This document shows positions 48,717-62,980 of a stretch of DNA of 64,000 nucleotides, in pieces. The position numbers and the translations under genes are program-made. Below the pieces are notes generated by a model, which was not told where the DNA came from, searched no databases, and was given only the letters and a program-made list of their open reading frames with translations. The stretch is taken from NCBI GenBank assembly GCA_040879645.1, contig JBBDJY010000006.1:94240-158239 (forward strand). Direction: 5' to 3'. Position 1 is the first letter of the stretch; each line of letters opens with the position of its first letter. The stretch is from Minisyncoccota bacterium (GTDB lineage Bacteria; Patescibacteriota; Minisyncoccia; Phycocordibacterales; XYD1-FULL-46-19).

Positions 48717-50402
48717 TCAGGCGTTGTTTTTAGGCACGTTTTTAGGTTTGTTCGTAAAGGCGGAATAATCAGCCACGCGAGTCAGTGACCCTTCGGCCAA
48801 GATGTAAGTGGAGTCAAGTTTAGCCCGCTCGAGAAAGTAGCGGTCATGTGAGACAAGAATGACCGTTCCGGTGTAAGTTGACAGGGTCTTTTCCAAGGCA
48901 AAAAGGGCAGCCAAGTCCAGGTGATTGGTCGGTTCATCAAGAATTAATGTATTCACCGACCGAGCGGAGAAGATGGCCAGAAGCAGGCGAGCTCGCTCGC
49001 CGGGACTTAGAGTCCCAACCAATTGCTTGACGCGGCTTTTATCAAAGCCAAACTTGGCCAGTTTGGCATAGGACTCTTGGCGACCCAATTTCGCTTGCTT
49101 CATCACACACTCAAGTAATGACAAATCTCGAGGCAAAGTTTCGTGTTCTTGCATCAAATTACCAACTTTAACGCCGGAACCGAGCTTGACCTCGCCGGCC
49201 AGCGGTGGCAGTTTGCCGGTAATTGTCTTGAGTAGAGTTGACTTGCCCGAACCGTTCAAACCAATGATTCCCAGACGATTGCCGTAGGAAATGTCCAAAG
49301 ATAACGGACCAACACGAAAGCCATCAGGGTAACCGGCAACCACGTCACTCAAAGACAAATGGCGCCGACCGGGGCCGGTTTTTGCCTCAAGCGGAATGGC
49401 AAAATCATCGGACTCAAACGGCTTTTCAATTTTCTCCATCTGGCCAATCCGCTTCTCAATCACTTTGGCGGCCCGGGCCGATTGTCCGGCCCGTTCACGC
49501 TTGAAACCCTTGAGCAGCTTGTCTCCATCGCTCCCCTGCCAGTGTGACCCTTTTTCTGATGATTGGCGTTTTTTCCTAGCGGTTTCGGTTAGGCGCTTAA
49601 CCTCTTTTTGCTGGAGGGTGTATTCGGTCTCTTGCCTGGCATTTTCTTTGGCCAATCTGGCCAAATAATCGCTGTAGGTACCACCAGAGACAATCAGGGT
49701 TTGCTGGCGAGAGTCTAGCCGGAAAATCTTTTTGGTCGTCCGGTCAAGAAATTGCCGATCATGAGAGACGACAATGCAAGTCGCCGAAATTTGCCGGATG
49801 AATTCCTCAAGCCAAATGAGAGCTGGTAAATCAAGATTATTGGTTGGTTCGTCAAGTAGAAGTAAATCAACCCCCCGGAGAAGAACTCCGGCCAAGGCCA
49901 CTTTGCTCTTCTGTCCGCTACTCAAGGCCGTCAACGGCTTATCAATATCGTCCTCGGTTAAACCAAATCCGGAAATGATTGCCTTCAACCTGAAGGTAAA
50001 AGTATAACCATCTAAACGCAAGTACTCTTCGTGTAGCTGATTATACTTTTGGGCCTGATCGGGTTGGTGAAGATCTGGCGACAAGTTCTCCAGTTCCTTT
50101 TCAATCTTGTCGATGCCGAGTAAAGCTCGAAGATGCTCGCCGACCGTTTCCTCTCCGGTCAAGCTCGTGTCTTGGGGCAAATAGCCGAGGCGAAGATCTT
50201 TCGCCAGCTTAATTTCACCACCATCAAGTTCTTCCAGACCGGCAATGATTTTAAGCAAAGTGGTCTTGCCGGACCCATTGTCTCCGACTAGGGCCACCTT
50301 GTCCCCTTCTTCCACCAAGAAAGAAACATCAGCCAACAAAGTCAGTGAGCCGTAGTTCTTGTGGATGTTTTTAGCTTGAATCATGCTCATATCTCCTTCC
50401 AC
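48717..50402 (-). CDS. ABC-F family ATPase (two nucleotide-binding domains, no transmembrane domain; EttA/Uup or ARE type).
   Basis: GDNGSGKTT + LSGGQKSKVALAG, then GLNGSGKST + LSPGERARL, with a charged linker; 561 aa. Confidence 0.85.
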   Translation of the reverse strand: MEGDMSMIQAKNIHKNYGSLTLLADVSFLVEEGDKVALVGDNGSGKTTLLKIIAGLEELDGGEIKLAKDLRLGYLPQDTSLTGEETVGEHLRALLGIDKIEKELENLSPDLHQPDQAQKYNQLHEEYLRLDGYTFTFRLKAIISGFGLTEDDIDKPLTALSSGQKSKVALAGVLLRGVDLLLLDEPTNNLDLPALIWLEEFIRQISATCIVVSHDRQFLDRTTKKIFRLDSRQQTLIVSGGTYSDYLARLAKENARQETEYTLQQKEVKRLTETARKKRQSSEKGSHWQGSDGDKLLKGFKRERAGQSARAAKVIEKRIGQMEKIEKPFESDDFAIPLEAKTGPGRRHLSLSDVVAGYPDGFRVGPLSLDISYGNRLGIIGLNGSGKSTLLKTITGKLPPLAGEVKLGSGVKVGNLMQEHETLPRDLSLLECVMKQAKLGRQESYAKLAKFGFDKSRVKQLVGTLSPGERARLLLAIFSARSVNTLILDEPTNHLDLAALFALEKTLSTYTGTVILVSHDRYFLERAKLDSTYILAEGSLTRVADYSAFTNKPKNVPKNNA

Positions 50403-51031
50403 TTAACCGCAATAAGATTATTATCTTCTTTCCAAGGCTTAGACATTGCTTTGATAAAAGTTTTTCGACCAACTTTCCGATTTTTAATTGGTGGCAATCC
50501 CGGATCATGGAAAGTAATATTATTATCTTCTATTGCCGTGATTAGAACCAAATGACTGGCATATCCTTTCTTTCTTTCCAAAACGTAAGGGTTAATTGAT
50601 ATCATAACCAAAAAGCCGTCATAGAAATACCTCTCAATATCACTGATAGAAATTTTTTTATTTATTAATTTAATTAAGGGATTCTTGATCAATTTCCGGG
50701 CTTGTATCTGTTCATTATCTAAATCAGAATATTTTTCTTGAACTTCAAAAACCTCTTTGCTCCAAATTTGGGCTAAATATTTTTTTCCTTGGCGAACAAA
50801 CTTTTTATAGTCGAGATTTTCAATATTAACCACCTCAAATCCCAGATTGGCTAAATATAGTAATCCTTGACTCTGCCAAGTCCATTGTTTCGGCTTATGA
50901 CCAATCAGGGGATCTAATATGTGATAGGGATAATTTTTATTCGGCAAATAATATTTTAAAACCATCCGCCAGCAAGCTGGCAAGCAACGAGTGTCATCTT
51001 TAGTATTTTTGTAAAAAGGAATATTAAGCAT
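50387..51031 (-). CDS. Standalone peptidase C39-like (papain-fold, bacteriocin-processing type) domain protein. The start is probably MLNIPFY; the listed ORF runs to 51076 through a terminator.
   Basis: DTRCLPACWRMVLKYY (catalytic Cys motif) and SHLVLITAIEDNNITFHDPG (His motif). Confidence 0.5.
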   Translation of the reverse strand: MLNIPFYKNTKDDTRCLPACWRMVLKYYLPNKNYPYHILDPLIGHKPKQWTWQSQGLLYLANLGFEVVNIENLDYKKFVRQGKKYLAQIWSKEVFEVQEKYSDLDNEQIQARKLIKNPLIKLINKKISISDIERYFYDGFLVMISINPYVLERKKGYASHLVLITAIEDNNITFHDPGLPPIKNRKVGRKTFIKAMSKPWKEDNNLIAVKWKEI

Positions 51032-51063
51032 AATTTTTATTAGGATAACACATAAATAAAATA

Positions 51064-51095
51064 GGCGGCAGGTCATGACCTGCCGCCAAGTGTCT
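51064..51095 (-). terminator. Rho-independent terminator after the Gly-rich micro-ORF.
   Basis: ggcggcaggtcatgacctgccgcc plus a T-rich run on the minus strand. Confidence 0.75.
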
Positions 51096-51112
51096 GACAG
51101 GGATTACTTCTT

Positions 51113-51181
51113 CCTGCCACCACCACCTCCGCCGCAACCACCACCGTTGTGATTACCGCCGTTGCCGGACATACTAACACC
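51113..51181 (-). CDS. 22-aa Gly-rich, Cys-containing micro-ORF, MSGNGGNHNGGGCGGGGGGRKK, with a strong Shine-Dalgarno. An in-frame 28-aa form starts at MRGGVS.
   Basis: GAGAGGAGGTGTTAGT ATG. Terminator immediately downstream. It is co-transcribed with the 61-aa ORF from the leader cassette. Confidence 0.35.
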
Positions 51182-51206
51182 TCCTCTCATATGGATTTTT
51201 TGCCTG

Positions 51207-51476: not shown

Positions 51477-51500
51477 TTTTGTTGGCAATAGCCGACAAAC
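51477..51500. promoter_or_regulatory. 20-bp imperfect palindrome TTGTTGGCAATAGCCGACAA (operator-like), copy B.
   Basis: Identical core at 59810-59829 and 61149-61168. Confidence 0.5.
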
Positions 51501-51592: not shown

Positions 51593-53269
51593 TTACTCTC
51601 CTGCTTGCTTTATTTCCTCTCGATTAGCCGAGGCGGCATCAGGTAATTCAAGGGTAAAAGTGGAGCCCTGGTCCTTGCCGGGCGAATTGGCGATAATTTG
51701 TCCTTGATGGGCTTCAATGATTTGTTTGGCGACAAACATTCCCAGACCGGTACCTTTGACATTTATCTTCCCCTCATCATCAGCCCGAACAAATTTTTGA
51801 AACAGTTTTTCAATTTCCTCCGCTTCCAAACCGACACCGGTGTCGGTGACATCAATCCTCACCTTTCCATCACCGGACTTAACCGCTACCTTTACCGAAC
51901 CGGCCGGCGTGTACTTAATCGCATTGTCGATAACATTGGAAATTACCTGACCGATTTTACCACTGTCGCCATAAACCAAGTACTCACCCTTGTCAGCCGT
52001 AAAGGATAATTTGATTTTCTGATTCTTGGCTGTCGCTTCGTATTCTTTAAGAACTTGTTCGGTTAAGTTCTTAAGATCAAATTCAGTCAATTCATATTTC
52101 ATCTTGCCCAATTCAATTCGCGTGATATTAAGAAAATCTTCAATCACCCGGACCAATTTCTGGCTGGATTCAAATACAATATCAACCTTTTCCTTTATTT
52201 TTTTCGGTACTTTTCCAAATGACCCTTCCAAAATCATTGATGAATACCCCTTGATGGCGGTCAACGGTGCCCGCAACTGATGCGAAGCGATAGAAACAAA
52301 TTCGGTCTTTTGTTTGTCCAATTCTTTCAATTTTTCATTAGCCCCAAACAAAGCTTTATTGACCTCTCTTAATTCTCCAGCCAATTTTTCAATGTGCTCT
52401 CTTTGTTTTATTTCCCGACGAACACTACGAATTAAATAAATGCCGAATATAAGTATTGATACAAAAATTAACGAATCCACCGCTCTTTCTATGATAGTGT
52501 TTGATCTAAATATTTGAGAAAAAATTATAATCCACAAAACTATTATAACTGCCTCAGTCACTATTATTTTAATATTAAAAAGTTCATATTTAGTAATTGC
52601 ATAGGCGGTTATCCCCATAAAAATTAGTGCATAAATAGAAATCAGGGGTAAAAATATTCCATTTCCGTAGATTATTATTGGAAGTAAGATTGTCCCAATA
52701 AGCAATAATAGCATCAGTGATATTCCGATTAAAATTAAAATGGATTGATATTGTCTGACTCCACTGTACTCTATTGTTTTTTTAAATAGAAAATATATGG
52801 CCAAGACACTAAACAAGGTAGATATAATCGCAAATGGAATTATTCCTAATCCAGCAATGGGATTTCCGCTATTATCTGTGGTATGGGTAAAGGCATAAGG
52901 AGATATATTTATAATTGCCATTACCGCAGTAAGAAGTAAAATTAAAACAAAATTACGTTGCGACATCATTATTTTATGACTTGGTATTGTATGGGCAAAT
53001 AGAAGGAACAAGGCGCTCATTAATGCCGCGAACATTATGCTAAGACGATGAAAGAAAATAGCTAATGATTCTATTTCTGGTAGTCCGGCTATATATCCTG
53101 ACCATAACCAAAACAATATAAAAATACTTAGCAATGAAAAAATTATATTGGTAGCACTTTTTTTATTACTGTAATAAATAGTAAAAATCAGTACGATTGA
53201 TCCTATCGACACTCCAGCAAGAAAAAATAACTCTAATTCACTTACTATATTAGAAAAAATTTCAATCAT
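51593..53269 (-). CDS. Sensor histidine kinase with a 7-transmembrane N-terminal domain; no response regulator is adjacent.
   Basis: HisKA region VSIASHQLRAPLTAIKGY, HATPase_c region DTGVGLEAEE...GTGLGMFVAKQII, 558 aa. Confidence 0.85.
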   Translation of the reverse strand: MIEIFSNIVSELELFFLAGVSIGSIVLIFTIYYSNKKSATNIIFSLLSIFILFWLWSGYIAGLPEIESLAIFFHRLSIMFAALMSALFLLFAHTIPSHKIMMSQRNFVLILLLTAVMAIINISPYAFTHTTDNSGNPIAGLGIIPFAIISTLFSVLAIYFLFKKTIEYSGVRQYQSILILIGISLMLLLLIGTILLPIIIYGNGIFLPLISIYALIFMGITAYAITKYELFNIKIIVTEAVIIVLWIIIFSQIFRSNTIIERAVDSLIFVSILIFGIYLIRSVRREIKQREHIEKLAGELREVNKALFGANEKLKELDKQKTEFVSIASHQLRAPLTAIKGYSSMILEGSFGKVPKKIKEKVDIVFESSQKLVRVIEDFLNITRIELGKMKYELTEFDLKNLTEQVLKEYEATAKNQKIKLSFTADKGEYLVYGDSGKIGQVISNVIDNAIKYTPAGSVKVAVKSGDGKVRIDVTDTGVGLEAEEIEKLFQKFVRADDEGKINVKGTGLGMFVAKQIIEAHQGQIIANSPGKDQGSTFTLELPDAASANREEIKQAGE

Positions 53270-54330
53270 CTGTAATTTATTTTAGGTAATAACTTTGTCG
53301 ATTTAGCTGAAGGCTCTCCGTCATATCCTATGCGCAGGATCGTTGTGATAATCCCATTTAATCTACAAATTGACTCTATCCCATGATAAGCCGTCTTAAT
53401 TTCATTATTGTCTTTTTCCGTAAATACCTGTGAAGCGGTTTTTTCTTCAACGGCTTGGTGAAAGAATAATAACCCACTGTTTAATTGTACTGACAAATTA
53501 TTTTTTGTTGCCGCTAACCAAATTGATTGGACTTGTCTCCCAACGTCAATAAAAGATTTACTATCTTTTAACTTAGCGCTAATAATACACAGCCCGGCAC
53601 AAGCGGAATGTGTCTCCTTATTTTCTGCGGCAATTTTTTTAGCGATGCCTAGTTTAAGCGCCAAAGACATAATTGGCCAATATTTAAGTAATCGCATCAA
53701 TAGTCTTTTGCCGAAGCTTAATTCCAGTGTATGGATTAATAGTCCCCCACCTCTTAACTTTTCTTCATTTTTATTCCAAACCAATTCTTTAAAAAAAAGT
53801 CTGTTTAAAAATTTATTTTCAAACATTATTCTTTCACCGACTGATAAATATTTAGCGATTTCGTCTATACTCGTTCGATTATAGATAAAATTAACATTTA
53901 CTTGATTATTAAAATTTATATATTTTTTTAAATCTGAAACAACGTTTTCCGTGATTGCCTCTTTGGCGTAAGGTTTTCGATTAGAGGCCCGCTTATGCAA
54001 ATAACTGTATAAAGGGCTTAATTTAACCGAGTCATCGTCTATTAACTCTATCGAAGCCGTTAATTTGGGCTCATTTTGATTAGGAAATATTTTTACAATA
54101 GCTTTTAAGTTGTGCTTGGTCGAAGCAATGGCAATATTTTCAATCAAGGCCCCATGAGCGATATAGGTTCCTCGATTTCGGACGTTTAGAACCGCGTGAT
54201 CTTTTTCCGGCTGAGCAAATATATTAATGGTGTTATCTTTTATTTCAAAGTACCAAGGCTGAGAATTTCCTCCCGATGGAGCATCGTAACTATCAGCCAG
54301 TATTTTTTCTATTATCACCTGATTAACCAT
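53266..54330 (-). CDS. Nitroreductase-family flavoprotein, enlarged (354 aa; tandem or SagB-like dehydrogenase type).
   Basis: PSGGNSQPWYF signature near the N-terminus. The length exceeds simple nitroreductases of about 200 aa. Confidence 0.6.
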   Translation of the reverse strand: MVNQVIIEKILADSYDAPSGGNSQPWYFEIKDNTINIFAQPEKDHAVLNVRNRGTYIAHGALIENIAIASTKHNLKAIVKIFPNQNEPKLTASIELIDDDSVKLSPLYSYLHKRASNRKPYAKEAITENVVSDLKKYINFNNQVNVNFIYNRTSIDEIAKYLSVGERIMFENKFLNRLFFKELVWNKNEEKLRGGGLLIHTLELSFGKRLLMRLLKYWPIMSLALKLGIAKKIAAENKETHSACAGLCIISAKLKDSKSFIDVGRQVQSIWLAATKNNLSVQLNSGLLFFHQAVEEKTASQVFTEKDNNEIKTAYHGIESICRLNGIITTILRIGYDGEPSAKSTKLLPKINYR

Positions 54331-54337
54331 AGTTTTA

Positions 54338-55378
54338 TTATATCAAATTTTCATTAAAACCACTCTCTTTAATCCCGGTCGCCTTTATTATTTTAGCCAC
54401 CCCTTTTTGCCAAGTGGCAATCGGGGTGATTTTAAGTCGAGGAATATCCGGCACTTGTTCATCAACCATATATCTAAATTCTCCGGCGGTCAGAAGAGAT
54501 CCAATTAGTAATCCTTCGGCGGTTAACAGGTTGGAAAATTTGGTTAAATCCTCGATGTTTTCTATCTTTTCAGTTTTCAGATAGTGTTGTAAAGTTTTTG
54601 TGGTTATTTGCCCGGAGACATACAACTTTTTTGTAAGCTCTATCAATTTGTCCATATCTAACCAGTAGGTTGGGAATTTATAGGAATAAAAAGATCGGTC
54701 AACATTTAATTTTTTATTGGGAGGCAGGCCTAAAGTTTCTTCGGCGGCAATAAAAGGCATGGCGGTTACTTTCCCATTTTTATTCAGGGCAATCACTTTA
54801 TTTTGGATATCACCCCTGACGATAGCGGTAACATATTCAAAGGTATTGATGTCTTCAGAATAATCAGCTATAAATTGCGCCTGCATCAGGGCGAAACATA
54901 TAGCGGTAAATTTATGTTTAGTTGAGTTTTTTTTGTTTATAAAACACGGATGAACCCCACACATTCTGGAGTCAGAATACACTTTAGACCATAGATTCTT
55001 ATTTGACCAATTCATTTTGTCGCACAGTAACTTAGGTACCGGCTGATTTTTATATTTATACAATTCTATTTCTCCAATCCCGGTAAATAATCCATCCCCG
55101 GGAACCATGCGCACACTCAACCATTCTTCGGTTTCTTTACCGTACCGGGCCCGGGCAAGATAGATAACAGCCTTATCGTCATATTTATCAAATAATTCCC
55201 GTGCCCCATATTTTTTGTATGAACCTCTGGCCAAGGCCAGGATTTTATACAGGCTTTTATCTAACCACTTTTTGTTATTTAAGTCTTTGGCACGGTAAAT
55301 CTCAAATTCTGCTTCAGCTGTAGAATAAACAGCTAAGGGTTTGGGTAATTTAAGCAGTGTCTCTGATATATTATTCAT
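54338..55378 (-). CDS. Hypothetical protein (346 aa) with a possible acyltransferase-like fold (very weak LuxI/FeeM/FemX-like impression).
   Basis: No clear motif was found. It is tightly packed inside the operon. Confidence 0.4.
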   Translation of the reverse strand: MNNISETLLKLPKPLAVYSTAEAEFEIYRAKDLNNKKWLDKSLYKILALARGSYKKYGARELFDKYDDKAVIYLARARYGKETEEWLSVRMVPGDGLFTGIGEIELYKYKNQPVPKLLCDKMNWSNKNLWSKVYSDSRMCGVHPCFINKKNSTKHKFTAICFALMQAQFIADYSEDINTFEYVTAIVRGDIQNKVIALNKNGKVTAMPFIAAEETLGLPPNKKLNVDRSFYSYKFPTYWLDMDKLIELTKKLYVSGQITTKTLQHYLKTEKIENIEDLTKFSNLLTAEGLLIGSLLTAGEFRYMVDEQVPDIPRLKITPIATWQKGVAKIIKATGIKESGFNENLI

Positions 55379-55383
55379 TGTAA

Positions 55384-56505
55384 TTAAATGTCCAATAGAT
55401 TGTTTAATTGCTTAAGGGTTTTTTGCCTTTGTTTTATGGCGTCTTTTTTTTGAAAATCAGAATCTAAAGTTGAAATCGGACTAAAGACATATTTGCCAGA
55501 CTTAAGATGATCAGTTGTTAAAATCATTTTGACAGTCATTGCTAATATTGATCCGGACATTACCGCCGCAATCCCTAATTGAGGTACATGGTTAATCGTT
55601 TGACCAATTGCTATGAGTGACTTTTGTAGATCTTCTTCCATAAATTCTGTTCCGATAATTTTAGAAGAAAGTTTACTCCAGGCTTTCGGGTCTTTATGGC
55701 GCAATAATGCCAGCCCGATATTTTTTGGTAAACTTACTCGGCCGTGGAAAATCGGGTATTTAGGGTCTCTATCATATCTTTCGATGTCTAAGATAATACC
55801 ATTGCCATTATCGGTCGCCATTAAAACGGGGATTTTCTTTTGTCTTGCTTTTTGCCTTATCCTCACTTTCATCATCAAATTATCCATCTCATCAATTAAG
55901 ATGTCGACGGCCGATAAAAAATTATCAATATTTTTCTCAGTTACTCCTTGGCGGAATATCTTTATGTCAGCGTAGGGGTTATTTTGATAGATATATTCGG
56001 CTGTTCTTTCTGCTTTATTCTGGCCAATATCGAGAAAATCAAAATGGAGCCGGTTTAGGTTGGTGCCAGAAATCTTGTCTCCATCCGCGATTTTCAAGTG
56101 TTTGGCAATACCGGACATCGAAAGAACCATGGCGGCATGACTACCAACGCTTAATCCGGCAATGGCAATTGTCGCATTATATAATTTATCTTGAGCAATA
56201 CTTGATACGACTTCTTTATTGCGAGCGGTTCTTAATTCCTGATGAAGGTCTTCCGGTAAATAGGAGACTAAAGTTTTGTTCCAAGGAAAATAAAACCAAG
56301 TTCCAGGCTTTGTTTGTTTTTTATTGTTTGGAAGATTTTTTATGAATTGTTTAAATTTGGGATCGTTTTTCGATTTTACTTTCTTTAGCGGATTTCTGAC
56401 TTGATAAAGCTCATAGATCAAATCGTCATATTTATCAATTTTTTTAGATATTTCATGAGAATTCTCAAATTTTTTTAGATTTAAAACTCGAATTGGTTTT
56501 TTCAT
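55384..56505 (-). CDS. ThiF/MoeB/E1-like adenylyltransferase with an N-terminal extension of about 105 aa.
   Basis: Rossmann/E1 signature IAIAGLSVGSHAAMVL...IADGDKISGTNLNRL, 373 aa. Confidence 0.7.
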   Translation of the reverse strand: MKKPIRVLNLKKFENSHEISKKIDKYDDLIYELYQVRNPLKKVKSKNDPKFKQFIKNLPNNKKQTKPGTWFYFPWNKTLVSYLPEDLHQELRTARNKEVVSSIAQDKLYNATIAIAGLSVGSHAAMVLSMSGIAKHLKIADGDKISGTNLNRLHFDFLDIGQNKAERTAEYIYQNNPYADIKIFRQGVTEKNIDNFLSAVDILIDEMDNLMMKVRIRQKARQKKIPVLMATDNGNGIILDIERYDRDPKYPIFHGRVSLPKNIGLALLRHKDPKAWSKLSSKIIGTEFMEEDLQKSLIAIGQTINHVPQLGIAAVMSGSILAMTVKMILTTDHLKSGKYVFSPISTLDSDFQKKDAIKQRQKTLKQLNNLLDI

Positions 56506-56515
56506 GGATCCTTAA

Positions 56516-57625
56516 CTACTTTCTTAAATCGGCAATATATTTGTTTTTATAAGAACTTGTTTTGGATGCATCTATGTTTTTTTGGAAAATAATTTTTTTA
56601 TTTTTTAAAAAATTGAGAGTTTCGTTTATTTCGGCTTCTTTCTTCTTTACTTTATTATCAATAAAAATTTCAACCAGATCTCTATCATTGTTGGTTTTAA
56701 TATAAACCATAAATTGGTCGGTAAATTTAAGTAACGAATCTATAATTTTTGTTTTAGATGTCAGAATACCCTGGACTTTAATTAAATCATCACTCCGGTT
56801 TATTATTTCAAATTCCTTCAACGATCCATTCCGGTTATATTTTACATTATCCAAAATATCCCCCGTTTTATATCGGATTATCGGTGTGGCCAGATTATAT
56901 AAATCAGTGACAACTAAATGTTTTAAGTTTTTAATTTCTATCGCTTCAACATATATACCATTGCTTATGACGGTTATTTTTTGAGGATCATCTTTTTTTG
57001 ATACCCCAATCGCCGGGCACTCGGTTAGGCCAAAGTGATTAATGACTTCAATCCCATACCTTTTAAATGTATCGGTATAGCTGTCTAAAAGTCTCTCGCC
57101 GGCGACAATTATCTTTTTGGGGAAATATCTTGATTTTTTTTCTTGTGCCAACAAGTTAAGTAAACTGATGGCATAACTGGGGACCGAAAGCCAAACATTT
57201 GGCCTGATCTTTTTTATTGCTTCTATCATCTTATCTTTAGGATAAGTGTTAGGGGCGCCTAGCGGTATTACCGAAATGTCCATTTTTTGGCAGGCCTTTT
57301 CGTACATACTCCCCGGCACATAATTACCATAGGCAAAAAGGTTTAAGACGATATCGTCTTTTGCTACTCCTGATTTTTTAAGCGATTTAATGGCCCGACT
57401 GATAAAGTGATGAACCGCTTGTTTTGAGTAAAAAACATATAAAGGGAGCCCGGTTGACCCGCTGGTAACCCGTAACTCTAAAAAAGATTTAGGCGTCTTA
57501 AATTTTTTAATTACGTTTTTATTACTGACTGGTACCTCGCTCCAGGTTTTTATTTTTGAGCCCCGATGAAAATTACGTAATATGTCTTGTTGTCGTATTT
57601 TTAGCGATGATTTGTTGTTTTTCAT
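56516..57625 (-). CDS. Adenylate-forming enzyme of the PaaK / coenzyme F390 synthetase / CapK-like family (ANL superfamily).
   Basis: VTSGSTGLPLYVFYS (A3-like), HFGLTECP (A5-like) and YKTGDIL (A8-like). Confidence 0.65.
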   Translation of the reverse strand: MKNNKSSLKIRQQDILRNFHRGSKIKTWSEVPVSNKNVIKKFKTPKSFLELRVTSGSTGLPLYVFYSKQAVHHFISRAIKSLKKSGVAKDDIVLNLFAYGNYVPGSMYEKACQKMDISVIPLGAPNTYPKDKMIEAIKKIRPNVWLSVPSYAISLLNLLAQEKKSRYFPKKIIVAGERLLDSYTDTFKRYGIEVINHFGLTECPAIGVSKKDDPQKITVISNGIYVEAIEIKNLKHLVVTDLYNLATPIIRYKTGDILDNVKYNRNGSLKEFEIINRSDDLIKVQGILTSKTKIIDSLLKFTDQFMVYIKTNNDRDLVEIFIDNKVKKKEAEINETLNFLKNKKIIFQKNIDASKTSSYKNKYIADLRK

Positions 57626-57636
57626 AGAGGAAGAAT

Positions 57637-58044
57637 TTAAACTACATAAAATTTTTCTTCAACCTCGGCCCTTATCTCGCCTCTTATTTTATATTTTCGA
57701 GAATAATTTGTTTTTGAGATAAGAATTCTTTTTAAATTTTTATTTTGAAAAATTTTACCAAATGGTTCATTGGGATTATGAGTGGCCCAATCATTAACAA
57801 ATTTGTTTTTTTTAAGTTTGTTAGTGGCTTGGCATAGGATTTTATCATTTTTTAAAAAGGCAATTTCTCGAAAGATAAAATCTTCGGTTATTTTTTGTTT
57901 TAATAGTTTGAACTCGACATCAGGAATATTTTTTTCAATATATAAAGTTGTTGATAAGGTAATATCATTTAATAATTCGAAAAACCACGGTGCCTCTTTT
58001 TTATTCATTCCAGCAAAAAAGCGATGCAAAAAAATAGCTTTCAT
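57637..58044 (-). CDS. Hypothetical 135-aa protein.
   Basis: ORF in the operon. It is preceded by a 19-aa micro-ORF (58063-58122, MEKYLIKKSYLDMTLLGEK) with an AAAGGTGG Shine-Dalgarno. Confidence 0.4.
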   Translation of the reverse strand: MKAIFLHRFFAGMNKKEAPWFFELLNDITLSTTLYIEKNIPDVEFKLLKQKITEDFIFREIAFLKNDKILCQATNKLKKNKFVNDWATHNPNEPFGKIFQNKNLKRILISKTNYSRKYKIRGEIRAEVEEKFYVV

Positions 58045-58247
58045 TATTTTATAGATTAAATTTTACTTTTCGCCAAGTAAAGTCATATCCAAATAGGACT
58101 TTTTAATCAAGTATTTTTCCATTCTTTCCACCTTTTAATAATATGACATTTTTTATCATACCACGGTTTAATTTATAAAGAAAGATTGATCAATTAAACT
58201 TAAATCCAAAAACTGTTTTTTATTTAACAATTAAAACCGAGATATCA

Positions 58248-59399
58248 TCAGGTCTCTTTTCCGATAGCTTGACTGATGTTGTGATATCCGTCTTGTTGTA
58301 ATAATTTAACCAAACCTTGGTTAATCTGGCTAATTGTTTGTGGTCCGTTAAAAATCATACCGGTAATCATTTGCAAAAGAGAAGCACCGGCTTTTATTTT
58401 TTTATAGGCATCAGTGGCATTAAATATCCCACCGACTCCGATGATGATAAATCTATCCCCGGCTTTTTTATAGAGATAAGAGATTTGCTGATTGGCTAAA
58501 TCTTCGACGGCTTTTCCCGATAGCCCGCCATTTTCCGCTGGCAATGTTTCCTTAATTTTTGCTTGGATGTTTTTATTGGTCTTATCTTTAACTAAATTGG
58601 AACAAATAAAACCACTGATGTTATACTCTTTCCCCAATTCAATAATTTCATCTAATTTGTTTGCCGGCAAATTATCCGGTGGCAATTTTATAAAAATCGG
58701 TTTTGACCAAGTGGCTATCGGAGAATGTTCTGTGGCCAGGGCCGTAAGTAGTTTTTTGAGAGAAGATGGATTGGCAAAAGGTTCTCCGCCAAAAGTATTC
58801 GGGCAACTGATATTGATAGTATAATAATCGCCAACCTTGGCTGCCAAAAAATAACGGTAAGCCGACAGATAATCGGCAACGCCGGCATCGGTCTCGATTG
58901 TCTTTTTGCTATTGGTTTTGGCTAAACTAACACCGACCGGAAAAGCAAATTTTTTGACCTTAAGGCGATGGCTGATAACTTTTGCCCCGTCATTTTTAAG
59001 GCCATAGTAAACCAGTAAACTTTTAGATTTTGGTAAACGCCAAAGACGAGGTTTGGGATTTCCTTCGCAAGGTTCACCGGTGACCGAACCACCTTCCATA
59101 AAACCAAAACCAACGAAGGGTAAAATATCTGCCAATTCTATATTTTTATCAAAACCGGCCGATAAGCCAACCGGGTTTTTAAATTTGATCCCCAAAATAT
59201 TTTGTTCCAGTGTCGGATGTGAATATCCGAAACATAATCTCACTATGAATCTGGTGATTTGGAATTGGCCCAGAAATTTACCAATTTCATTAAATCTATC
59301 GTGAACCTCTTCCGGATTATGTCGAAATAAAATTGGCTTTAACAAAAAACGATACTTCCAGGCAATTATAGTATTTCTAAATTTTATTAATGTTTCCAT
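58248..59399 (-). CDS. pyrD: Dihydroorotate dehydrogenase, class 2 (quinone-type) fold.
   Basis: FKNPVGLSAGFDKN, GFGFMEGGSVTGEPCEGNPKPRLWRL, INISCPNT, GGLSGKA, IIGVGGI...AGASLLQ align with the recalled E. coli PyrD. Confidence 0.85.
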   Translation of the reverse strand: METLIKFRNTIIAWKYRFLLKPILFRHNPEEVHDRFNEIGKFLGQFQITRFIVRLCFGYSHPTLEQNILGIKFKNPVGLSAGFDKNIELADILPFVGFGFMEGGSVTGEPCEGNPKPRLWRLPKSKSLLVYYGLKNDGAKVISHRLKVKKFAFPVGVSLAKTNSKKTIETDAGVADYLSAYRYFLAAKVGDYYTINISCPNTFGGEPFANPSSLKKLLTALATEHSPIATWSKPIFIKLPPDNLPANKLDEIIELGKEYNISGFICSNLVKDKTNKNIQAKIKETLPAENGGLSGKAVEDLANQQISYLYKKAGDRFIIIGVGGIFNATDAYKKIKAGASLLQMITGMIFNGPQTISQINQGLVKLLQQDGYHNISQAIGKET

Positions 59400-59807: not shown

Positions 59808-59915
59808 AATTGTTGGCAATAGCCGACAAAATGACTTTGATTTTAGTCAAAAATATCCTTGGTTTGCAATCTTTGCCGGCTAAGAGAGAGAATTTCACCG
59901 GTTTTGTTGGGGCTG
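59808..59915. repeat. Repeated regulatory module of about 110 bp, copy D. It contains the palindrome TTGTTGGCAATAGCCGACAA and a TTGACT box.
   Basis: 64 nt are identical to 61147-61209, followed by a similar tail (..ccgrttttgttgggg..). Confidence 0.8.
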
Positions 59916-60587: not shown

Positions 60588-61067
60588 TCAGGTGCAATTG
60601 ACAGTGCCATTGCAATCGTAGTCAGGGGAGCAATCTAACCCACAGCCAACTCGCCCAGATATAGCTCCTTCCTTCGCCCATCCCCAATTGTCAGAGATGA
60701 GAACAGGATCAAGATGTTTCTTGACAGCCTTAATGGTCCGAAGGATACAATCACGGTCTGATACCGAGTCACGTTCTGTCTTAGGAACGTGGTGAATGAA
60801 AACACCAAATTCCCTCTGACAAAATTCTGCGTAGTCTCGCGTGAATAAAATGAAAGAATGCCACCCCTCATCAATAATTGAAGGCGGGGCAATGCTCTCA
60901 TTTTCTTGCTGAGTCAGCCACAGAAATGTTAAGGTATCCCTGAACAATTCCTCGGCTTCTTCCATTGGAAGGCAGAGGTTCCGTGAAAGACGGCTCACTA
61001 CTCCATGGTTATCGTAGTGAAGAACGTCTTCAAGAGAAGCCTTGTTCTCTGTTTGTTGCAAAGTCAT
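60588..61067 (-). CDS. Hypothetical protein with a DUF1399/GRDP-like motif and a Cys-rich C-terminal tail. The start is the ATG after the cassette's Shine-Dalgarno.
   Basis: IIDEGWHSFILFTRDYAEFCQREFG fits a W-H...L....Y...C...[FY]-G pattern, recalled from memory. The tail reads GCGLDCSPDYDCNGTVNCT. Codon usage is more GC-rich than the neighbours. Confidence 0.5.
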   Translation of the reverse strand: MTLQQTENKASLEDVLHYDNHGVVSRLSRNLCLPMEEAEELFRDTLTFLWLTQQENESIAPPSIIDEGWHSFILFTRDYAEFCQREFGVFIHHVPKTERDSVSDRDCILRTIKAVKKHLDPVLISDNWGWAKEGAISGRVGCGLDCSPDYDCNGTVNCT

Positions 61068-61135
61068 ATAATCACCTCCTTTCAAAGACCAAGTTTTTCT
61101 TTGGACCTATTTCCAAAGAATCTAATATCACCTTA
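61068..61135 (-). promoter_or_regulatory. Conserved 5' leader cassette, copy C: TATTAGAT, a 7-bp hairpin CTTTGGA/TCCAAAG, then AAAAACTTGGTCTTTGAAAGGAGGTGA.
   Basis: Seen directly. Confidence 0.6.
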
Positions 61136-61146
61136 CTGAAAAAAAG

Positions 61147-61255
61147 AATTGTTGGCAATAGCCGACAAAATGACTTTGATTTTAGTCAAAAATATCCTTG
61201 GTTTGCAATATCTTTCGATTTCAGGTGGAAATTTTGCCGATTTTGTTGGGGAGAT
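61147..61255. repeat. Repeated regulatory module of about 110 bp, copy C (palindrome at 61149-61168), lying between divergent genes.
   Basis: See copy D. Confidence 0.8.
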
Positions 61256-61316: not shown

Positions 61317-62198
61317 ATGAGATTAGATATCATTGTCAATAAACAGGCAAATTTCTATTTTTTTGCCCAAAATCTTTCCGAATGGCATTTCAGTAATCGA
61401 AAAGATTACAATACTTTATGGCGTAAAGAATTAGGAAAATTTTCAGATGATGAAGAATTAGCCATTAAACATCTAAAAAAGATTCATCTGCGGTATTCGT
61501 TTGGTAAATCATATTTAGGACGTCACTTTTTTCTTGAAGAAAATCCTTGGTTTTTTTTAAAGACGAGAATGGCTCAAGAAGACTTTATTACACTTAAAAA
61601 TATTTTCTCTTTATTGGAAGATAAGTTTAATCTTTTTTGGAGTAAAGAAGCGCCATTGCTTTTAGCGTGGCAAAAAGAATTAGCCAATAAAGCAGATGAT
61701 CACCTAATGATAGAAAATATCATTGAATTACTGAAAATAATTTTCAATACTAATCCTTCAACGTCTGAAGTGGCGATAAACCTATTGCCGTCTTCCCCTG
61801 TCCATACCGGAGGCGGAGCAAATATTGACAGTAAAAATATAACTTTAGAAATTTCTCGATACCCCAAGCAAGGCACCAATCACGCTATGAGTCTTATTTG
61901 GCATGAAATTATCCATCTATGTTTCCAAGAACAGTATTTCTCCGCGCTAGTGTCAGAAAAATTGCCAAACGATAGACAAAAAGCTGATTTGATAAATGAA
62001 ATTGCTATCAGGTCTTTATTTCCTAGGGGTATTTTAGGGATAAGATTATTCAAAGAGGAGTCTAGGCGTAAATTAATAGAAGAAACTAATCCGGAACAAA
62101 CAGTTAAAATTATTGACCTGGCAAAAGAGTATGTGGACGATAAAAAGTCCTTTGATAATACATATATAGAGAAAATTTTGGAGATTTTAAAAATATAA
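61317..62198 (+). CDS. Hypothetical HExxH protein (putative zinc metallopeptidase).
   Basis: WHEIIH motif, 293 aa. Confidence 0.45.
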   Translation: MRLDIIVNKQANFYFFAQNLSEWHFSNRKDYNTLWRKELGKFSDDEELAIKHLKKIHLRYSFGKSYLGRHFFLEENPWFFLKTRMAQEDFITLKNIFSLLEDKFNLFWSKEAPLLLAWQKELANKADDHLMIENIIELLKIIFNTNPSTSEVAINLLPSSPVHTGGGANIDSKNITLEISRYPKQGTNHAMSLIWHEIIHLCFQEQYFSALVSEKLPNDRQKADLINEIAIRSLFPRGILGIRLFKEESRRKLIEETNPEQTVKIIDLAKEYVDDKKSFDNTYIEKILEILKI

Positions 62199-62272: not shown

Positions 62273-62980
62273 ATGGAGAAAAAAGAGAAAAAACATATTA
62301 AATTAAAGACGGGAAAGGGAGATAAAACTATCGATGTTTTTTTTGGCACCGGATTTGTAAACAAAAAAACTATTGGAATGATTAAAATTGGGGTACAAAA
62401 AGCTTTCAAATTCTTTAATCAAGTTGAAAAAGTTAATTTCAGGATAGACCTTGTCTCATCTAGATCGGAATTTGACAAAAAAATCGGTTTTAAGACTGAG
62501 GATTGGTTTATTGGAAATTCATTTGGGAATAAGTTTATGATATTTAGTCCCGAGACGATAGAAAAAGAGACTAGTCATAAAAAAAATGAATTTATTCCCC
62601 TCATAGCGCATGAAACCGCCCACATTTTGCATAAAAAAATTAATCCTAATTTTAGTCACTGGATGAGTGAAGGTATTGCTCAAAATATTGCCGAGCAAAA
62701 AACAAAAAAAGATATAAAACCCGAGAACATAAAACATTTTTTAGAGCATAATTTATTCCAAAATTCTGATTATAGAGAGTTCATCTCTCATCAGGGTTAT
62801 GAAATTTCGAATAAATTGACCAAGTTTTTTATTGATCATTATAGTAAAAAACAAGTCATGGACTTATTGAAAATAAAATACAGTTCCTCACCTGTTGTGA
62901 TTGAAAAAAAGTTTTGTGATAGATTAAGAATCGACAAGAATCATTTGATTCTTGCGGTTAAAAATATCTTGAAGGATTAA
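62273..62980 (+). CDS. Putative zincin-like metallopeptidase (HExxH + E).
   Basis: IAHETAHILHK...SEGIAQ, 235 aa. Confidence 0.5.
   Translation: MEKKEKKHIKLKTGKGDKTIDVFFGTGFVNKKTIGMIKIGVQKAFKFFNQVEKVNFRIDLVSSRSEFDKKIGFKTEDWFIGNSFGNKFMIFSPETIEKETSHKKNEFIPLIAHETAHILHKKINPNFSHWMSEGIAQNIAEQKTKKDIKPENIKHFLEHNLFQNSDYREFISHQGYEISNKLTKFFIDHYSKKQVMDLLKIKYSSSPVVIEKKFCDRLRIDKNHLILAVKNILKD

Follow-up and report, generated by a model that had tools for sequence, protein, structure and literature searches.

On the minus strand of a 64,000-nucleotide stretch of contig JBBDJY010000006.1 from a Minisyncoccota bacterium (the window), six closely packed genes between positions 51593 and 58044 appear to encode the enzymes of an oxazolone-type N-acyl amino acid pathway together with a seven-transmembrane (7TM) histidine kinase. 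In the direction of transcription, these are a 135-amino-acid (aa) protein with a predicted chorismate-lyase (UbiC/DUF98, UTRA) fold (57637-58044), a PaaK-like adenylating enzyme of the ANL superfamily (369 aa, 56516-57625, recognised by Pfam and NCBIfam), a ThiF-like ATP-dependent cyclase (373 aa, 55384-56505, recognised by NCBIfam model NF005901 and Pfam ThiF), a proposed N-acyl amino acid synthase (NAS) for which a LuxI/FeeM acyltransferase fold is predicted (346 aa, 54338-55378), a flavin-dependent oxidase (FDO) proposed to act as a C-alpha/C-beta desaturase (354 aa, 53266-54330, recognised by NF005901 and NF047509), and the kinase (558 aa, 51593-53269, recognised by Pfam HisKA_7TM, HisKA and HATPase_c). 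An earlier note made from the sequence alone had described the first five as a tightly packed unit, and their positions and packing are as it described, with gaps of 11, 10, 5 and 7 nucleotides (nt). That unit was one gene short, however, because it omitted the kinase gene, whose start overlaps the stop of the FDO gene by 4 nt and which is conserved with the rest of the cassette. GC content over these genes is 0.31-0.37, down from about 0.45. The region is thus markedly AT-rich, as had been noticed, but low GC does not delimit the cassette because it extends from about 52 kb as far as the window's end. Pfam was run on 37 of the larger open reading frames (ORFs) of the window, chiefly those in 30-64 kb and including all cassette genes, and NCBIfam on 10; the remaining genes of the window are ordinary housekeeping genes. 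A promoter scan scored the real sequence no better than shuffled sequence, no clear terminator was seen right behind the kinase gene, and neither an Rfam search of 50-64 kb nor a tRNA scan of the window gave a match.

Related loci were gathered from metagenomes and metagenome-assembled genomes, using a 31-sequence alignment as the query of the metagenome scan and phmmer for annotation of their ORFs; a scan of a genome collection with narrow peptide patterns gave 3 loci. The cassette genes are syntenic in 28 related loci, and their clustering is far beyond chance. This agrees with the earlier suggestion of a dedicated biosynthetic cassette rather than a stray MoeB/ThiF protein beside an ordinary nitroreductase. 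Two arrangements recur. In Type A (the window, L004-L007, L010 and L011), the order is small protein, PaaK-like ligase, ThiF, acyltransferase, FDO and kinase. In Type B (L001-L003, L008, L015, L016 and JGI 3300050821), a receiver-only response regulator is followed by ThiF, acyltransferase, FDO, kinase and a long FadD-like ligase composed of AMP-binding and AMP-binding_C domains. The order is permuted to ThiF, FDO, acyltransferase and kinase in L026, genes are inverted in L024, L025 and L027, and genes are fused in L019, L024 and L025. The named sources of these loci are Paceibacterota, Parcubacteria, Saccharibacteria, Magasanikbacteria and one bin labelled Poribacteria.

Some of these loci have features of their own. 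L025 (JGI 3300020198; P0169, labelled Candidatus Poribacteria) is the sole cassette from a bin not labelled as belonging to the candidate phyla radiation (CPR); it has ThiF joined to the acyltransferase, an oxidase gene in inverted orientation, a DDE transposase, a 7TM kinase and two receiver genes, and its label points to horizontal transfer or else to an error of binning. In L004 (3564-10077) and L005 (5329-11842, the same as L007), which represent a single CPR lineage, the whole cassette sits in the S10 ribosomal-protein operon between rplB (L2) and rpsS (S19). A gene for an Asn/Asp-type tRNA synthetase is inserted along with it, joined in L004 by a DUF3800 gene, and this unusual site suggests that the cassette moves as a unit. 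An extra gene for a protein of about 308 aa with no Pfam match lies between oxidase and kinase in L006 (6846-7772), and a homolog of it follows the oxidase in L003 (9664-10220).

Enzymes and kinase of the cassette

The assignment of the cyclase and the oxidase comes from a single model built for a fusion protein. NCBIfam NF005901 ('Rv1355c family protein') matches the ThiF ORF over model positions 27-346 (E 5.9e-75, 252.9 bits) and the nitroreductase ORF over positions 374-711 (E 1.4e-48, 165.7 bits). Given that the two ORFs match opposite halves of one model, they are most probably the split halves of the Rv1355c/TrzS family. In the sister cassette of L019, the two are joined into a 774-aa ThiF-FDO fusion that reaches 769.5 bits against the cut-off of 476. 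The earlier family calls, ThiF/E1-like for one protein (Pfam ThiF, 5.8e-26) and nitroreductase for the other (Pfam Nitroreductase), both hold. The N-terminal extension remarked on in the E1-like protein is also real, Pfam ThiF starting at residue 99 and leaving about 100 aa ahead of it. Since the NF005901 alignment begins at model position 27 and so covers this region, the extension appears to be a trait of the Rv1355c family rather than evidence of a peptide clamp like those of MccB and PaaA, and its motif YYPW...ELRTxRN is kept across cassette orthologs. Invariant in 13 cassette orthologs of the cyclase are the Gly-rich, nucleotide-binding loop (G117/S119/G121), D141, N151-R152 (the NxNR motif) and E206-x-D208 (the DEMD adenylation motif); the closest solved sequence is that of the cyclodehydratase TcdA. 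The nitroreductase had been called SagB-like. No TIGR03605 match was obtained at E<=0.1, and the protein is instead of the Acg/TyzC type, matching NF011424 (2e-51) and the Acg-family model NF047509 (5e-34). It fits the FDO subgroup, which within the nitroreductase superfamily consists of Acg-like proteins of about 340 aa and of the monomer type, and its FMN motifs are invariant in 13 orthologs: N22/Q24/P25 (NxQPW), R114 and R118 (RxxxR), together with R333.

Rv1355c is TrzS, which together with the acyltransferase TrzA turns tryptophan into N-acyl tryptazolones; ATP-dependent cyclisation followed by O2-dependent desaturation of N-acyl-Trp was shown biochemically (PMC12856293). In TrzS, the variant D217A blocks cyclisation and R540A blocks desaturation. 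TyzA/TyzB/TyzC, a split system (PMC10404671), and OxzA/OxzB (bioRxiv 10.1101/2020.06.11.147165) perform the same chemistry on Tyr/Phe. By homology, the window cyclase would be the equivalent of the N-terminal half of TrzS and OxzB and of TyzB.

The 346-aa protein was listed as an unknown in the earlier note. Its lack of a family match stands, and we now assign it to the LuxI/FeeM acyltransferase fold from structure prediction, proposing that it serves as the NAS. The best-kept motifs of its family align with LuxI-family signatures of LasI (reference sequence checked against PDB 1RO5): FDKYDDKAVIYLA with IDGYDALSPYYML, WLSVRMVPGDG with GCWRILDTTG, and SDSRMCG with WELSRFA. About 130 residues form an added C-terminal domain. 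The family, with about 256 cluster representatives, is highly divergent and appears new. Natural fusions tie it to the pathway: it is joined to ThiF in a 795-aa protein (P0132/L025) and to the quinone-type dihydroorotate dehydrogenase PyrD in a 705-aa protein of Candidatus Magasanikbacteria (on 6 contigs; L024 8001-10118).

The first two genes of the operon may form a starter module. For the 135-aa protein, likewise listed as unknown, the absence of a Pfam or NCBIfam match was confirmed, and a stand-alone chorismate-lyase (UbiC/DUF98) fold is now predicted. A word-based homolog search returned only the protein itself, and an alignment-based search brought the family to 6 known members. The product-binding E155 of UbiC (reference sequence likewise checked against PDB) aligns with invariant E130 of the small protein; R76 of UbiC was not aligned with invariant R59 by MAFFT, and their equivalence is taken from the strand register REILLC / REIAFL. 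The neighbouring ligase had been recognised as PaaK-like, and this is upheld by Pfam AMP-binding (1.4e-12) and by PaaK models as the best NCBIfam matches (4e-23, 1e-22), ahead of weaker matches to FlxY, BagE/FevW and F390 synthetase. It reaches 80-82 bits against PaaK cut-offs of 646-700, and the first ~80 model positions are absent, while the ANL core motifs TSGSTG, GLTE, YKTGD and RSDDLIKVQG are readable in its translation. It has orthologs at the corresponding place in L004-L007, L010 and L011. We propose that the ligase activates a carboxylic acid, possibly an aromatic one, as acyl-AMP or acyl-CoA, and that the small protein supplies or binds an aromatic acid starter such as 4-hydroxybenzoate from chorismate. 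It is the adjacency of a chorismate-lyase-fold protein and an aryl-acid-type ligase that suggests an aromatic acyl starter. In Mycobacterium tuberculosis, the chorismate pyruvate-lyase Rv2949c and the p-hydroxybenzoyl-AMP ligase FadD22 likewise put a stand-alone lyase-fold protein beside an adenylating enzyme, and so provide an aromatic acid in activated form; the likeness of the window is at fold level, however, and its ligase, a minimal PaaK-like enzyme, has no carrier domain.

The kinase (HisKA_7TM 6.7e-07, HisKA 2.3e-14, HATPase_c 7e-27 in Pfam) is nearly unbroken hydrophobic sequence over residues 8-285, with short loops only, from which it would follow that its sensing must take place within the membrane. 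A homologous 7TM kinase lies beside the enzymes in 21/21 loci with enough flank, despite changes in gene order, strand, fusion state and phylum (loci considered: the window, L001, L002, L004-L007, L009, L010, L014-L016, L019-L027 and JGI 3300050821). These 21 contain near-duplicates and reduce to about 15 distinct lineages, nearly all CPR; the remaining related loci end before the kinase position. The kinase gene directly follows the core in most loci, is separated from it by one unannotated gene in L006, and lies one or two genes from the enzymes in the rearranged L024, L025 and L027. Within the collected loci, the 7TM domain alone (residues 1-290) finds cassette-linked kinases only, at E 1e-88 to 7e-9, while two further kinases of these loci match the catalytic core only and do not have this sensor domain. 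Because the linkage is to one sensor-kinase subfamily, is universal and survives rearrangement, the kinase is very probably coupled functionally to the enzymes.

Possible outputs of the kinase are seen in relatives. Receiver-only response regulators lie directly upstream of the cassette or a few kb off. PilB-like and PilC-like genes occur with receivers in L001, L003, L008, L014, L023, L026 and JGI 3300050821, and probably in L009. Three of the PilB-like ATPases carry an N-terminal receiver (REC) domain (L014 12854-14671, L023 16763-18502 and L026 11526-13271), each gene having a receiver-only regulator ahead of it and a PilC-like gene behind it, a few kb from the cassette. Such an architecture implies direct phospho-control of pilus assembly in these three CPR bacteria. 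Since receivers and REC-PilB/PilC accompany the kinase in relatives, type IV pili are suggested as an output; no pilus genes were found in the window.

The proposed synthase-receptor module and its alternatives

A working model can be drawn for the operon, every step of it from homology, fold and synteny. The 135-aa protein would provide an aromatic acid, most simply 4-hydroxybenzoate from chorismate, which the PaaK-like ligase would adenylate to give acyl-AMP or acyl-CoA. The LuxI/FeeM-fold acyltransferase would then load the acyl group onto the amino group of an amino acid. Next, the ThiF-like enzyme would adenylate the carboxylate of the N-acyl amino acid, allowing the amide oxygen to close the ring to an oxazol-5(4H)-one, and the FDO would introduce the C-alpha/C-beta double bond. 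Finally, the co-transcribed 7TM kinase would perceive the lipophilic product or an intermediate inside the membrane, the whole forming an autoinducer-like synthase-receptor module of CPR bacteria with receivers and type IV pili as output. Homology supports the cyclisation and desaturation steps, and fold together with synteny supports the acyltransferase step. The supply of an aromatic starter is suggested more weakly and is the least certain step. We consider it likely that the enzymes produce an oxazolone or dehydro-amino acid derived from an N-acyl amino acid. Taken as one statement, that 51593-58044 is an oxazolone-type N-acyl amino acid operon with a dedicated 7TM kinase forming a synthase-receptor pair, the proposal is given a rough probability of 0.55.

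The combination had been said to correspond to no pathway that could be named; it does match the oxazolone synthetases described in 2020-2025, so that the enzyme trio itself is already known. The window shares the layout of those pathways: the three activities are adjacent, the acyltransferase being spaced by 5 and 7 nt from its neighbours, with ThiF fused to FDO in L019 and to NAS in P0132/L025, and the adjacent acyltransferase has a predicted FeeM/AHL-synthase fold. In TrzA/TrzS (Rv1356c/Rv1355c) of M. tuberculosis, M. smegmatis and Rhodococcus, the halves of TrzS are homologous to the window cyclase and FDO, and an acyltransferase gene is adjacent as in the window (PMC12856293). The L019 cassette, with its acyltransferase followed by a ThiF-FDO fusion, resembles trzA-trzS. 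By contrast, the window has one gene for the cyclase and another for the oxidase, and that of the acyltransferase lies between the two; this acyltransferase belongs to a distinct family that is unrecognisable by sequence and has an extra C-terminal domain; and the ligase, the chorismate-lyase-fold protein and the ever-present 7TM kinase are additions found in a CPR host. Genes for c-di-GMP flank the trzAS locus, unlike that of the window. For TyzA/TyzB/TyzC (Rv2336/Rv2338c/Rv2337c), no kinase, ligase or UbiC-like gene was reported, and TyzA draws acyl-CoAs from the cellular pool (PMC10404671); among the NCBIfam matches of the window FDO, the Acg model comes behind the Rv1355c-family model. OxzA/OxzB of Pseudoalteromonas rubra (de Rond, Asay and Moore) likewise join an NAS to ThiF-nitroreductase chemistry but, unlike the window, OxzB is a fusion, the hosts are proteobacterial and no linked receptor was described.

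Gene pairs of an autoinducer synthase and its membrane histidine-kinase receptor are well known from LuxM-LuxN, CqsA-CqsS and LqsA-LqsS. The window resembles these in placing a gene set for a lipophilic-signal synthase beside a polytopic kinase that has no large extracytoplasmic domain, and its synthase set includes a LuxI-fold enzyme. It differs from LuxN/CqsS in that sensor-domain homology is undemonstrated, the kinase is not a hybrid, the predicted signal is an oxazolone, and the module is a predicted one. A synthase-receptor pair like LuxM-LuxN or CqsA-CqsS would be the most economical model, and we rate the kinase as a possible receptor for the pathway product at somewhat below even odds.

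Several results weigh against the proposal. For the acyltransferase, Pfam and NCBIfam (FeeM, Acetyltransf_5 and Autoind_synth included) gave no match at E<=0.1, a search of PDB sequences with a profile of the family alignment found none, hhalign of this alignment against the single LasI sequence was not significant, and Foldseek against PDB returned generic GNAT matches, none of them significant. The small protein fared similarly: Pfam at E<=10 gave nothing relevant for all six members, the profile search of PDB sequences found none, hhalign against a single UbiC sequence was not significant, and UTRA domains, which bind ligands, also have the predicted fold. Added together, the scores of the window's ThiF and FDO come to ~419 bits, short of the 476-bit equivalog cut-off of NF005901. 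CPR bacteria usually do not have the shikimate pathway for chorismate synthesis or fatty-acid and CoA biosynthesis, and many are anaerobic, whereas the FDOs characterised so far use O2. The 64-kb window has no gene for a receiver-domain protein anywhere, the adjacency of the kinase would suit a regulator of the operon no less than a receptor of its product, and the recurrent adjacency and fusion of PyrD has no explanation in the model.

Among the alternatives, the peptide modification favoured by the earlier note would make the locus a ribosomally synthesised and post-translationally modified peptide (RiPP) system, akin to the C/B pair of thiazole/oxazole-modified microcin (TOMM) synthetases but lacking YcaO, in which the E1-like extension binds a precursor and micro-ORFs encode the substrates. 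The chemistry is indeed alike, since the TOMM and microcin B17 synthetases (McbBCD, SagBCD) also couple ATP-dependent heterocyclisation to flavin-dependent dehydrogenation through E1-like and nitroreductase-superfamily proteins; N-terminal peptide clamps exist, MccB and PaaA being weak sequence matches over the adenylation core; a micro-ORF with a strong Shine-Dalgarno (SD) sequence lies just upstream of the operon; and 2 kb away there are a C39-like peptidase and a Gly/Cys-rich micro-ORF. Reading the E1-like/nitroreductase pair as heterocyclisation and dehydrogenation without YcaO was sound, and no YcaO was found among the 37 Pfam-scanned or 10 NCBIfam-scanned ORFs. The peptide substrate was not, because members of the Rv1355c/TrzS family act on free N-acyl amino acids rather than peptides (PMC12856293, PMC10404671, bioRxiv 10.1101/2020.06.11.147165). 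Unlike a TOMM locus, the window has no YcaO, no SagB-type dehydrogenase (TIGR03605) in the ORFs tested and no conserved precursor peptide, and its E1-like protein would itself be an ATP-using cyclase of a small molecule, with the N-terminal region falling within the model of a family whose characterised members act on small molecules (PMC12856293). What is conserved alongside is an acyltransferase rather than a peptide; the micro-ORF is missing in L004 and L006 and, not being conserved, was rejected as leader or precursor peptide; and the peptidase and the Gly-rich ORF have no counterpart in related loci. The peptide model fails every defining feature that could be tested, is largely refuted, and is very improbable. 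Still less credible is a sulfur-carrier MoeB/ThiF protein and an ordinary NAD(P)H nitroreductase that are neighbours by chance. MoeB/ThiF models do match the adenylation core at 1e-12 to 1e-23, but at 35-83 bits these equivalog scores are far under cut-offs of 152-647 and the Rv1355c-family match is much stronger. No ubiquitin-like (ThiS/MoaD-like) small ORF was identified among the cassette neighbours, and chance neighbourhood is refuted by conserved synteny in 28 loci together with ThiF-FDO and NAS-ThiF fusions.

Two alternatives keep the enzymology and change the product or its use. The end product could be an open-chain N-acyl 2,3-dehydro-amino acid, as in the thalassotalic and kyonggic acids and in stieleriacines, with ThiF giving a transient or hydrolysed intermediate only; producers of such compounds carry the same NAS/ThiF/nitroreductase trio and no oxazolones were observed (PMC12479983), and oxazolones hydrolyse in hours at pH 8 (bioRxiv 10.1101/2020.06.11.147165). 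However, 3/3 biochemically reconstituted systems yield oxazolones (PMC10404671, PMC12856293, de Rond et al.) and the ThiF ATP-binding residues are invariant here, which leaves this outcome improbable. More serious, though we still hold it unlikely, is that the same chemistry yields a metabolite for end use, for instance a lipid of the membrane, an antimicrobial or a protectant against stress, and that the kinase is not its receptor but senses the state of the membrane or envelope or a host cue and controls the pathway or is co-regulated with it. Kinase genes commonly adjoin the operons they regulate, and the long FadD-like ligase of Type B loci fits fatty acyl chains. A role as membrane lipids has been considered possible for C12-tyrazolones, and the related N-acyl dehydrotyrosines called stieleriacines act as antimicrobials (PMC12856293, PMC12479983). 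By contrast, because the cassette-adjacent response regulators are receiver-only and have no DNA-binding output, direct transcriptional control of the operon is not evident, and a sensor domain that is specifically and universally linked to the enzymes through rearrangements is more like synthase-receptor pairs than generic regulation.

Full-text searches of the literature collection available found no prior mention of this pathway in CPR bacteria or with histidine kinases, nor of this divergent acyltransferase family or the UbiC-like/PaaK-like starter module. What appear to be new are the presence of the pathway in CPR, the acyltransferase family, the starter module and, most of all, the 7TM kinase, which is obligatory and linked to receivers and pili; folds and plausible functions are also assigned to two formerly unannotated protein families, the acyltransferase and the small protein. 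CPR bacteria have tiny genomes and little biosynthetic capacity, and their retention of a five-enzyme secondary pathway nonetheless suggests that it is important to them. The physiological role of oxazolones has been called 'a major unresolved question', with their resemblance to signalling molecules mentioned (PMC12856293), and the OxzA/OxzB authors speculated on a signalling role (bioRxiv 10.1101/2020.06.11.147165); all three biochemical papers describe the role of the products as unknown and put signalling forward as a suggestion (PMC12856293, PMC10404671, bioRxiv 10.1101/2020.06.11.147165). The locus supplies a named candidate receptor, making the question of an oxazolone signal experimentally addressable. 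Type IV pili are essential to the host-associated lifestyle of cultivated Saccharibacteria (PMC11665869). A tentative and, as a whole, rather doubtful extension would be a self-contained CPR signalling circuit in which an oxazolone, possibly N-aroyl, is detected by the 7TM kinase and acts through CheY-like receivers and REC-PilB on type IV pili, motility and host attachment. If this circuit is real, oxazolones would gain their first receptor and their first physiological role, and CPR bacteria a first dedicated system of communication by small molecules.

Neighbouring genes and repeats

Directly upstream of the cassette and on the same strand lies the gene of PyrD (58248-59399, minus), which scores 325.8 bits against NF003652 (cut-off 267). 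In L027, PyrD (172-1275) is directly upstream of the acyltransferase gene, while in the other related loci, apart from the fusion to the acyltransferase, it is not beside the cassette. PyrD is possibly a seventh component, possibly a mere neighbour, reflecting either a functional link or inherited synteny.

The 19-aa micro-ORF with a strong SD sequence was confirmed at 58063-58122 on the minus strand (MEKYLIKKSYLDMTLLGEK, SD AAGGTGG). It ends 18 nt ahead of the 135-aa gene, which has no recognisable SD sequence of its own, and nothing corresponding to it lies upstream of the operon's orthologs in L004 and L006; it may be a lineage-specific leader or coupling ORF. The C39-like peptidase gene (50387-51076, minus) and the Gly/Cys-rich micro-ORF immediately upstream of it (51104-51190, minus; MRGGVSMSGNGGNHNGGGCGGGGGGRKK) are present as the earlier note had it, but the link to the cassette that it drew was not sustained, with no homolog in the 28 loci. 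A strong GC-rich hairpin (51064-51087) sits at their junction, and the two could be a separate small peptide/protease pair. These two, a methyltransferase and the downstream unknowns were rejected as cassette members, having no homolog in related loci.

The low-GC region also contains ORFs at 60588-61085 (minus, 165 aa), 61317-62198 (plus, 293 aa) and 62273-62980 (plus, 235 aa), for which no Pfam match and no homolog in related loci were found; the 165-aa protein has a Cys-rich tail, GRVGCGLDCSPDYDCNGTVNCT. A 105-nt direct repeat (59808-59912 and 61147-61251), identical over its first 63 nt and 85% overall, flanks the methyltransferase gene and that of the 165-aa protein, and, on the minus strand, one copy is upstream of the 165-aa gene and the other upstream of a GreA-like gene. 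At its start, the repeat has ~20 nt that form an imperfect hairpin, TGTTGGCAATAGCCGACAAA, with a partial copy at 51480-51500, ~95 nt downstream of the kinase stop. The repeat may represent a duplicated promoter or 5' region.

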